Shown in pieces: positions 1 through 1,122 of a DNA stretch of 5,885 nt. The DNA is from a virus (lineage: Duplodnaviria; Heunggongvirae; Uroviricota; Caudoviricetes): IMG/VR virus record IMGVR_UViG_2675903481_000015, one strand, 5' to 3'. The stretch's first letter is position 1, and each line of letters opens with the position of its first letter. A program made the position numbers and the translations under genes. The notes below the pieces were generated by a model. It saw nothing but the letters and a program-made list of their open reading frames with translations. It made no database searches and had not been told where the DNA came from.

Positions 1-95
1 GCTTTACTGTTGATGGCGTCGCCTGGAAGGTGCGCATAGATGCAGGTGTCGCGGCCCTCGACTATCGCGGATTACTGAAATCGAGTGGAGCATGA
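1..95 (+). CDS. 3' end of an unidentified ORF entering from the left edge (C-terminus ...FTVDGVAWKVRIDAGVAALDYRGLLKSSGA, stop TGA 93-95)
   Basis: Frame 3 is open from the window edge to TGA at 93-95 and is followed directly by a hairpin plus T-run. Too short for any family assignment. Confidence 0.3.
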   Translation, partial: FTVDGVAWKVRIDAGVAALDYRGLLKSSGA

Positions 96-102
96 CAACA
101 AG

Positions 103-125
103 GGCGGCGATAGCCGCCTTTTTTT
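103..125 (+). terminator. Rho-independent terminator-like hairpin (GGCGGC-GATA-GCCGCC followed by 7 T)
   Basis: Perfect 6-bp GC stem 103-108/113-118 with 4-nt loop, then TTTTTTT 119-125, immediately after the stop at 93-95. Confidence 0.45.
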
Positions 126-352
126 ACGGGTCCTCCCGGTGGGGTGGTCTGCCACGGGGCGGGAGCGGCGCGGAAAAAGGCTGGTTTTTGCATTTTCATT
201 CGTCATCATCATCTTTCTATCATATTGAATTTTAAGTGCTTTTATTTTTGGTATGTTAATTTTGCTTATTTTGCGTTCAACATACAGCGCGTTTTTTGAC
301 CTTTTTTAAAAGATATTTGCAAGATGCATGTTTAAAACATTCTGGAGCGGGT
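126..352 (+). other. Lambda-like cos region (cosQ/cosN-like GC-rich segment 126-175, then AT-rich cosB-like segment up to the terS start)
   Basis: 126-173 ACGGGTCCTCCCGGTGGGGTGGTCTGCCACGGGGCGGGAGCGGCGCGG resembles the lambda right-end/left-end junction as I recall it (ACGGGTCCTTTCCGGTG...GTTACG|GGGCGGCGACCTCGCGG). The AT-rich stretch that follows contains TTCGTCAT, also recalled from lambda cosB. Position about 180 bp upstream of a Nu1-like gene matches lambdoid layout. Recalled, not aligned. Confidence 0.5.
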
Positions 353-838
353 ATGGATCGGGAACTGAAAAATCTGATGCTGAACATTAACCAGCTGGCG
401 GCGATAGCGGGAATATGTCGCCAGACTGCGGCGGCAAGGCTGAAAAATATCCAGCCAGCCGGAGGACATGACAAGCTGAAACTCTATCGGGTGACTGACA
501 TTCTGACCTGTTTTCTTGATCTTCCCGTTCCGGCATCACTGGAAGAAATGGAGCCACACGACCGTAAGGCCTGGTATCAGTCCGAACGTGAGCGCCTCAA
601 GTTCGAACAGGAAACGGCGCAACTCATACCCGCCGATGATGTGCGAAAAGAGATGGCTATATGGGGAGAAATCGTAAGCGAGGAACTGGAAAAACTCCCC
701 AGTATTCTGGCACGTGATGCTGGGCTTAAACCGATGGCAGTAAACAGAGTGCAGTCAATTATTGACGATTTGTGTAATCTGATTATCAGCCGGATGGTAA
801 AAAATGACGTAGTGAATGAGGTCGCAAAACAGGCATGA
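353..838 (+). CDS. Terminase small subunit, Nu1 family (or a satellite-encoded TerS-like packaging protein)
   Basis: Track ORF 296-838; preferred start ATG 353 (MDRELKN...) with GGAG at 344-347. N-terminus LNINQLAAIAGICRQTAAARLKN...P.GG..K..LY matches the lambda gpNu1 winged-HTH pattern (VNKKQLADIFGASIRTIQNWQ...), and GEIVSEELEKLP resembles gpNu1 AGEIASILDGLP. Sits downstream of the cos-like site. Confidence 0.72.
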   Translation: MDRELKNLMLNINQLAAIAGICRQTAAARLKNIQPAGGHDKLKLYRVTDILTCFLDLPVPASLEEMEPHDRKAWYQSERERLKFEQETAQLIPADDVRKEMAIWGEIVSEELEKLPSILARDAGLKPMAVNRVQSIIDDLCNLIISRMVKNDVVNEVAKQA

Positions 839-1122
839 TAATGACCGAATCTGAAATACTGCGATTAATCCGCTGTGCTGGTGGAATTAGCCAGTTGGCT
901 GACGAACAGGCCGCGCAGCCGGATACAGTCACCGCTGAAAATTACGCGCGTGTGGTGGCTGAGGTGATGCGCCGTGACGGTATTGAGCTTAACGGCGTGG
1001 ATATGCGCAACATACGAACCAGAGTCCTTGAGTTGCTGGCATACCGTCGCCGTTCTCAACAACGGAGGGAGAGCGCGAAAAATACTTACCAGTGGAAGAA
1101 GCCGGAACGACTGCGGCGGTAA
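835..1122 (+). CDS. Hypothetical 95-aa protein coupled to terS, occupying the position of the large terminase gene; possibly a terL N-terminal remnant
   Basis: ATG 835 overlaps the terS stop (ATGA, 835-838); alternative ATG 841. Basic C-terminus (RRRSQQRRESAKNTYQWKKPERLRR). N-terminal SEILRLIRCAGG weakly resembles recalled lambda gpA N-terminus (SQVNRLRHFVRAGL). No ATPase or nuclease motifs. Confidence 0.4.
   Translation: MIMTESEILRLIRCAGGISQLADEQAAQPDTVTAENYARVVAEVMRRDGIELNGVDMRNIRTRVLELLAYRRRSQQRRESAKNTYQWKKPERLRR

Follow-up and report, generated by a model that had tools for sequence, protein, structure and literature searches.

A satellite island of Escherichia coli probably carries the cos site of mEp460-like helper phages

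Positions 126-352 of the stretch of DNA analyzed here (the window, 5,885 nucleotides of the Caudoviricetes record IMGVR_UViG_2675903481_000015) probably constitute the cos site, that is, cosQ, cosN and cosB in succession, of a 10.9-kb satellite of the phage-inducible chromosomal island (PICI) type, inserted between rcnR and thiM in Escherichia coli, a site copied from mEp460-like lambdoid phages and most likely cut by the large terminase subunit (TerL) of a helper phage. A first-pass annotation of the window had noticed a cos core departing from that of lambda where the cohesive end would lie, and had taken this as consistent with an altered packaging specificity. We find that the five differences from lambda are, as far as sequence comparison can tell, lineage variation in a tolerant right half of cosN, inherited together with a helper-type cosB and the DNA-binding domain (DBD) of a small terminase subunit (TerS).

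The core was read directly from the window and compared with lambda after alignment on the nick position. Positions 121-180 read TTTTTACGGGTCCTCCCGGTGGGGTGGTCTGCCACGGGGCGGGAGCGGCGCGGAAAAAGG, within which 126-141 are ACGGGTCCTCCCGGTG, 154-162 are ACGGGGCGG and 163-173 are GAGCGGCGCGG. The lambda sequence given in the annotation is correct, as can be seen from the two ends of NC_001416, ...CACTTTACGGGTCCTTTCCGGTGATCCGACAGGTTACG on the right and GGGCGGCGACCTCGCGGGTTTTCGC on the left, which together rebuild the junction ...ACGGGTCCTTTCCGGTGATCCGACAGGTTACG/GGGCGGCGACCT/CGCGGGTTTTCGC (slashes mark nicks). The window contains a cosQ-like heptamer, GGGTCCT, at 128-134, the same as that of lambda, which we take to be cosQ at lambda bp 48473-48479; it lies 22 bp upstream of the predicted top-strand nick, compared with 23 bp in lambda. 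By alignment with lambda, cosN (CG, GGGCGGGAGCGG, CG) occupies positions 155-170, the top strand being predicted to be nicked at 156/157 and the bottom strand at 168/169, and its core reads ACG/GGGCGGGAGCGG/CGCGG. The predicted 12-nt 5' cohesive end, GGGCGGGAGCGG (157-168, plus strand), is assigned by homology to phage ends. Lambda shares with the window the cosQ heptamer, the left half of cosN (ACG/GGGCGG), the right flank CGCGG, the 12-bp stagger and the order of cos followed by terS, whereas the five mismatches between GGGCGGGAGCGG and GGGCGGCGACCT (bp 7, 8, 9, 11 and 12) all fall in the right half, so that the difference originally noticed is borne out at 5 of 12 bases. Rotational symmetry of cosN extends to 8/16 positions in the window and 10/16 in lambda. 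Downstream, 171-352 form a cosB-like region, termed type a, which is homologous to phage cosB; no strand is assigned to the heptamer, cosN or cosB. This cosB is unrelated to that of lambda, the protein encoded at 353-838 shows no BLASTP similarity to Nu1, and TerL of the helper type is only 25% identical to lambda gpA. In its cosQ spacing, its left cosN half with CG flanks and predicted nick sites 12 bp apart, and its adjoining cosB followed by a terS homologue, the segment has the makeup that a lambda-like cos site would be expected to have.

While the cohesive end differs from that of lambda, it is found in known lambdoid phages. BLAST searches of GenBank phages matched 126-352 to lambdoid cos regions with E-values down to 1e-50, and showed 126-783 to be homologous to cos plus terS of vB_EcoS-569R4, phi458, PhiR47_1 and mEp460 (~73% identity, E down to 6e-107), a likeness that, given such low E-values, is not due to chance. 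The 12-mer of mEp460 (JQ182728) is identical to that of the window, flanks included, and the exact GGGCGGGAGCGG is present in 4/5 prophages of the P0011 type, which display the order lysis genes, cos, DUF1441 TerS, 700-aa GpA TerL, portal and protease-capsid fusion. Phages 569R4, phi458, HannyBb, Tritos and cdtI carry GGGCGGGAGCGT, an 11/12 match, while the 12-mers of Fels-1 and mEp043 are GGGCGGCAGCGG and GGGCGGCGCGCT, respectively, the latter agreeing with the putative end cited for the related mEp213 (PMC12315714). The cos regions of mEp460, P0011, 569R4, phi458, cdtI and Tritos all exhibit the cosQ heptamer, the 22-bp spacing and the core ACG/GGGCGGGAGCG(G/T)/CGCGGAAAAAGGCT, with at most one base different. 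Over the stretch from cosQ to the ATG (126-362), identity to the window is 90.7% in P0011-type prophages, ~81% in 569R4 and 61% in Stx2d_112808. The GenBank records of Tritos (linear) and cdtI start at the G homologous to window position 157, reading GGGCGGGAGCGT, which indirectly supports the predicted end of the cohesive 12-mer. A literature text search for GGGCGGGAGCG returned unrelated matches only.

The cosN of the window consequently does not stand as a nonstandard variant: the alignment shows it to be a known lambdoid cosN, identical in mEp460 and P0011-type prophages and 11/12 in cdtI, Tritos, 569R4 and phi458, which is the very outcome that the annotation had named as speaking against its own reading. 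It is neither novel nor satellite-specific. What does differ between the island and the phages is the setting, since the phage cos lies between the lysis genes and terS-terL, whereas the island cos lies between a capsid gene and a TerS-like gene, without terL, and is flanked upstream by a terminator rather than by phage sequence. Two records of this phage group deserve separate mention. The Stx2d-converting phage Stx2_112808 has the core ACG GGGCGGGCGGCG CGGAAAAAGG (L011, ~1500-1560), two bases shorter before the A-run than the mEp460 type, so either its cohesive end or its right flank differs again. The record of mEp460_4F5 (LR595868) begins 5 nt upstream of the expected end and misses 3 nt in cosN, probably an assembly artefact.

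Conservation across the site is uneven. In the eight phage and satellite sequences compared, cosQ-cosN and the first ~45 bp of cosB are constant, while the upstream flank and distal cosB vary. The cosQ heptamer is unchanged or one base off across all aligned phage and satellite cos regions, and the cosN block is constant among them, bp 12 excepted. The proximal part of cosB is conserved as GGAAAAAGGCTxGTTTTTGCATTTTCATTCGTCATCA, and the distal part, which is lineage-specific, holds a 10-bp segment missing from 569R4-type phages.

As for the gene that follows, positions 353-838 (plus strand) encode a 161-aa DUF1441 small-terminase homologue, matching Pfam PF07278 (1.1e-35, residues 10-147) and PHROG 141, "terminase small subunit" (2.4e-56). 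While the profile matches are those of a TerS, the gene has neither a terL of its own nor an acidic C-terminal tail: the protein ends in VKNDVVNEVAKQA, where phage TerS ends in TEAGADDEEELQQEE. It is a composite, in which codons 1-70 form a winged helix-turn-helix (wHTH) DBD that is amino-acid-identical to phage TerS and codons ~71-161 (563-838) form a satellite-specific central and C-terminal half. An alignment of 33 homologues separates two types of C-terminal half, that of phages (...TEAGADDEEELQQEE, with the acidic tail) and that of satellites (...ISRMVKNDVVNEVAKQA). A survey of genomic contexts found the satellite type in satellites only, at several integration sites, joined to three DBD types (a, b and c), each of which also occurs in true phage TerS. 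The type of cosB follows the type of DBD in three phage/satellite pairs, a co-variation that is observed directly: cosB is 90.7% identical between the window and a P0011 phage (type a), 96% between P0006 satellites and 569R4 (type b) and 91% between a P0015 satellite and Stx2d_112808 (type c), compared with 60-84% between types. Relative to P0011 phage TerS, codons 1-70 of the window gene show no nonsynonymous (and no amino-acid) and seven synonymous differences (synonymous divergence, dS, 0.15), the central block has a dS of 0.6 and a nonsynonymous divergence (dN) of 0.03, and in the homologous C-terminal part synonymous sites are saturated and dN is 0.30. From these substitution counts and the cosB/DBD co-variation it follows that satellites repeatedly reacquire cosB and DBD from phages while keeping an old C-terminal half, the exchange presumably running through two blocks that are conserved, cosQ-cosN and the RKAWYQSERERLKFEQETAQLIP region in the center. 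Among satellite C-terminal halves dS is <=0.1, with too few substitutions for selection to be read from dN/dS.

Several E. coli chromosomes contain the window at 100% identity. In one of them, NZ_CP147608.1, the region lies at the right-hand end of an island that is inserted between rcnR and thiM and encodes, in order, an integrase, DUF6387, a helix-turn-helix (HTH) regulator, YlcI, an Icd-like protein, DUF4222, a primase, HEPN, a ClpP-protease/capsid fusion, cos, the DUF1441 protein (353-838) and a 93-aa open reading frame (ORF93, 841-1122). Core to core the island measures 10,948 bp, with a 14-bp att core at both ends. The attR core, AGAAATACCCGTAT (1709-1722, no strand assigned), marks the right satellite boundary inside the thiamine pyrophosphate (TPP) riboswitch aptamer of thiM, and the same 14-mer at the left junction (L002 10761-10774) adjoins the 5' half of the THI-box. 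The makeup, with co-oriented int, an alpA-like HTH, a primase and a late zone between att repeats in an island of 10-20 kb, is that by which Gram-negative cos-type PICIs are recognized, and a cosN matching a helper phage is present too, being identical to that of mEp460 and the P0011 type, with relatives of the island embedded in such prophages, whose role as helpers we infer. The island is a Gram-negative cos-type PICI. No TerL, portal, tail genes or connectors are annotated in it, the late genes being only the protease-capsid fusion, the TerS-like gene and ORF93; a capsid-forming PICI (cf-PICI) is ruled out, because the island lacks its own TerL, portal, HNH and head-tail connectors. The module of capsid, cos and TerS-like gene, usually followed by ORF93, is intact at several unrelated sites (thiM, the allantoin region, upstream of clpS, and inside a prophage terL). 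Of 5426 complete E. coli genomes, 191 contain the satellite-type late segment and 125 the island with its thiM junction.

The last of these sites bears on the identity of the helper. In two IMG/VR contigs, L020 (1-11983) and L040 (1-11367), a satellite sits inside terL, at codon ~326-333, of a 569R4-like prophage, which physically ties the satellite family to this helper lineage. The late modules of these satellites closely resemble that of the window, with capsid fusions 93-99% and TerS-like proteins 96-98% identical and a cos with G at bp 12, ORF93 being present in L020 only; upstream of the L020 satellite lie the cos of the helper itself, which has T at bp 12, its TerS and the N terminus of its TerL. 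L020 and L040 resemble the helper-embedded PICIs (HE-PICIs) described in PMC10111431 in lying inside a lambdoid terL, a listed target class (A:Terminase_1), whereas the island of the window has an integrase only ~25% identical to theirs and a chromosomal site, the thiM riboswitch. Helper-type cos-terS-terL modules are found in 1331/5426 complete E. coli genomes. The helpers are probably mEp460-like lambdoid phages, with a DUF1441 TerS and a 700-aa TerL of the GpA family.

Sequence identity, genomic setting, cosB/DBD co-variation and the tie to the helper lineage are seen directly in the data; in the mechanism that we propose, under which the site is a working cos, the cleavage position, the protein that binds cosB and the one that recruits TerL are the inferred elements. 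During lytic growth of the helper, the satellite would replicate as concatemers; a TerS-type protein, whether the satellite product of 353-838, the helper TerS or a mixed oligomer, would bind cosB and position the GpA-family TerL of the helper; this enzyme would nick at 156/157 and 168/169 to leave 12-nt 5' ends of sequence GGGCGGGAGCGG, and cosQ would serve termination. The excised circle would be 10,948 bp long, and since four copies amount to 43.8 kb, about as much as the 44.5 kb of mEp460, packaging of a tetramer in full-size heads would be possible. Alternatively, the capsid fusion of the island might form small heads.

Several observations weigh against this reading. The starts of the Tritos and cdtI records are indirect evidence for the position of cleavage, and experimental end-mapping for the window element or its cosN variant was not found in the searchable literature. 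Within cosB, no repeated R-like elements were found and the R3-I1-R2-R1 pattern is missing, which leaves putative TerS sites undefined, nor does 171-352 contain the integration host factor (IHF) consensus within one mismatch. The satellite TerS-like protein lacks the acidic tail of its phage counterparts, casting doubt over TerL recruitment. As for the cosB pattern, the cos sites of N15 and of PICIs are likewise without R3-I1-R2-R1 organization (PMC9026076), and that arrangement therefore does not define all lambda-like cos sites.

A different account would make the changed cohesive end itself a specificity switch, the satellite having altered cosN so that only a particular or redirected terminase, and not one of the lambda type, cuts it. 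The five cohesive-end bases unlike lambda would suit it, and a TerL lineage only a quarter identical to gpA makes some co-adaptation of TerL and cosN conceivable, but the variant is the phages' own cosN rather than a satellite-specific one, and one cosN serves phages whose TerS and cosB are far apart, with ~30% identity between TerS of the DUF1441 type and of the Tritos type as against 77-87% between their TerLs. Moreover, the right half varies widely among otherwise similar cos sites: a scan of IMG/VR for ACGGGGCGG-N6-CGCGG, which fixes the left half by design and is uninformative on its conservation, returned more than 15 distinct right-half hexamers in clearly cos-like contexts, and the right half is therefore naturally hypervariable. 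Published work points the same way. N15 and lambda have different bases at bp 9 and 12, and neither terminase discriminates between the cosN alleles (Feiss et al., PMC4669245); lambda TerL is reported to nick right-half variants efficiently, and mismatched ends lower the yield only about fourfold (PMC4669245). Packaging specificity has instead been assigned to cosB and TerS (Murialdo and Feiss, PMC9026076; Fillol-Salom et al., PMC6092414, PMC6739421). The rule published for PICIs is that their cosN equals that of the helper (PMC6092414), and the cosN sequences of the PICI EcCICFT073 are those of its inducing prophage (PMC9026076, PMC6092414, PMC6739421). We consider a specificity switch very unlikely. 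Of the earlier suggestion of altered specificity, the part that stands is that the packaging system is a different one, in TerL, in the lack of Nu1 similarity and in cosB, while no evidence makes the cosN change the determinant. Within this phage family, specificity follows the co-varying pair of cosB and TerS DBD. The difference in specificity from lambda resides in the whole terminase/cosB system and not in the cosN substitutions.

A narrower form of adaptation would concern bp 12 alone, where G instead of T might, for example, prevent cross-annealing of satellite and helper ends or bias nicking. In the IMG/VR sample, G is found at this position in 8/8 distinct satellite contexts, compared with 8/69 DUF1441-TerS phage contexts and 0/22 Tritos-type phages, and in L020, where satellite and helper form an embedded pair, T stands in the helper and G in the satellite. 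However, the eight cases are not independent of one another, because the late module that the satellites share is recently related, with dS <=0.1 for the C-terminal half; the phages nearest in cosB and DBD have G too (the P0011 type in 4/5, and mEp460); and a second cos in two relatives, L083 and L020, has T. Since the nearest phages mostly have G, inheritance is enough to account for the pattern, which is explained by descent and which we do not regard as adaptation, an idea a shade less credible again than the switch. Least credible of all is that the cos and terS-like segment is a nonfunctional relic of a decayed prophage. The island does lack TerL, portal and tail genes, and its TerS-like protein has lost the phage-type C terminus, but a relic would hardly be maintained as an intact capsid-cos-TerS-like module at several unrelated integration sites, with 8/8 distinct TerS-like alleles full-length and cosQ-cosN unchanged while the flanks vary. 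The recent exchange of cosB and DBD with phages implies ongoing selection for matching, and the architecture equals that of EcCICFT073, which has been mobilized experimentally (PMC6092414).

EcCICFT073, in the CFT073 chromosome, is also a close model for a cos site inherited from helper phages, as we propose for the island. Its gene order is the same (int, alpA-like HTH, Icd-like, DUF4222, primase, capsid gene, cos, partner, ORF93, attR), the partner that occupies the slot after cos1, rppA, likewise encodes a small protein of the wHTH type, and its cosN is that of its helper lineage (PMC6092414, PMC6739421, PMC9026076). There are, however, three differences. EcCICFT073 has a lambda-identical cosN, GGGCGGCGACCT, where the island has one of mEp460 type; its cosB differs from that of its helper, whereas that of the island matches a phage cosB; and its partner, Rpp, is not a TerS by sequence, whereas that of the island is a true TerS homologue. 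Between the two islands the cassette of cos and partner protein has been exchanged: that of CFT073 combines a lambda-type cos with Rpp, that of the window an mEp460-type cos with a TerS homologue.

Is the protein encoded at 353-838 then a counterpart of Rpp? By sequence it is no Rpp homologue, since BLASTP against the 144-aa ORF of EcCICFT073, which we took as RppA from its published length and the presence of R21, T22, R25 and K29, gave E = 2.7, and a comparison with PDB sequences gave noise only, with no RppC chains at E up to 1 and no Nu1. The AlphaFold2 model (mean pLDDT 76.6, pTM 0.35) consists of an N-terminal helix/strand domain followed by long helices; its N-terminal ~50 residues resemble MerR-like winged-helix domains (RacA, BldC, MtaN), a match that fits a Nu1-like DBD but is not significant. 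In a Foldseek search with this model, RppC was not in the top 50 matches and no PDB match fell below E = 0.1. In lambda, it is the C-terminal part of Nu1 that binds TerL (PMC9026076, section 1.2), and, by analogy, the satellite protein may stand apart not in the DNA that it reads but in its engagement, if any, with TerL or TerS oligomers. On the basis of the shared rppA slot and a central block identical to phage TerS, we tentatively raise the possibility, itself doubtful, that it is a previously undescribed, TerS-derived counterpart of Rpp, a satellite-only chimera, with a central and C-terminal half corresponding to the part of lambda Nu1 that serves oligomerization and TerL binding, which could co-assemble or compete with helper TerS, hindering packaging of the helper, aiding that of the satellite, or both. 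A satellite-encoded TerS homologue used with helper TerL is known from pac-type Staphylococcus aureus pathogenicity islands (SaPIs) such as SaPI1 and SaPIbov1 (PMC6739421, PMC6092414). In contrast to the island system, which is of cos type, the SaPI TerS recognizes a SaPI-specific pac site and works by headful packaging, and while the island DBD is identical to that of phage TerS, it is the putative TerL-binding end that differs.

The remaining features of the window fit the island. Positions 1-95 (plus strand) are the 3' end of the 637-aa ClpP-like prohead protease/major capsid fusion gene (RefSeq annotation, NZ_CP147608.1; the coding sequence ends at L002 20095, which is window position 95). 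It is followed by an intrinsic terminator at 103-125 (plus strand), with stem GGCGGC/GCCGCC, loop GATA and seven T, identified by direct reading and an inverted-repeat scan, although the hairpin scan reported the 103-125 hairpin on the minus strand only. The T-run directly adjoins cosQ, and the same GCCGCCTTTTTTT-ACGGGTCC junction occurs in related satellites. ORF93 (841-1122, plus strand; PHROG 1561, 1e-52), a PICI late gene whose function is unassigned, is 74% identical to the 93-aa ORF after rppA in EcCICFT073 and is found after the TerS-like gene in most of the related satellites that were examined, L040 being without it; full or partial matches occur in 890/5426 complete genomes, and E. 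coli PICIs conserve the gene at their right end. The notion that it is a decoy of the TerL N terminus was rejected, as tblastn and blastn against phage terL gave nothing. Between ORF93 and attR lie ~580 bp (1123-1700) with no convincing ORF and no Rfam family match, which contain a strong hairpin at 1313-1338, ACCGAGGGCGGAATTCCGCCTTCGGT, and a long GC-clamped inverted repeat (GGGGCGGG at ~1365-1372, CCCGCCCC at ~1405-1412) followed by a T-run.

Other observations concern the island at large and its relatives. Two of the latter have two cos sites each (L083 7639 and 10175; L020 8231 and 10767), the second one, which lies 5' of the capsid gene, having T at bp 12 and a cosB start of the Tritos/cdtI type, TTTCATGGCGGCGGCAGCAT; this suggests dual helper compatibility, by analogy with cos1 and cos2 of EcCICFT073. 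Unlike these relatives, the island shows no second cos, and the corresponding segment is replaced by the minus-strand HEPN gene (L002 16980-17890). An imperfect direct repeat of ~75 nt, which contains TGTGTGGTCA twice, is found just inside each end of the island (1575-1650; L002 10840-10940); it precedes int on the left and attR on the right and may represent arm-type binding sites of the integrase. Directly 3' of the primase gene (L002 16765-16944), dense TGTTCACC-type repeats, which gave a spurious microRNA-family match, probably mark the PICI replication origin. A weak SymR-like match (33.6 bits, threshold 61) lies between the YlcI and Icd-like genes (L002 14015-14087).

The insertion splits the thiM leader. 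What remains beside rcnR is the promoter of thiM with the 5' half of the THI-box (GCAACCAAACGACTCGGGGTGCCCTTCTTTGTGAAGGCTGAGAAATACCCGTAT), and only the 3' half precedes thiM (1635-1803; L002 10720-10774); in keeping with this, Rfam reports in the window no TPP riboswitch at the gathering score (33 bits, threshold 54.3) and no other family. In 125/5426 complete genomes, thiMD is thus cut off by 10.9 kb from its promoter and half of its riboswitch, a split that may deregulate thiMD in ~2% of sequenced strains.

For the biology of these satellites, a cohesive end unlike that of lambda is no evidence of a re-engineered specificity, as free drift is seen in the right half of cosN from one lambdoid lineage to another and the cosN of a satellite is simply the one that its helpers have. 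At least two packaging cassettes can replace one another in the same slot of E. coli PICIs. The co-variation of cosB and DBD provides a natural map of which partners recognize each other in a terminase family that about one in four complete E. coli genomes contains. More interesting than the cos site is the chimeric TerS-like protein: its satellite-specific C-terminal half is a testable candidate for a new mechanism of hijacking or interference and, if it is indeed a counterpart of Rpp, the protein would be a living intermediate of the proposed evolution from TerS to Rpp.

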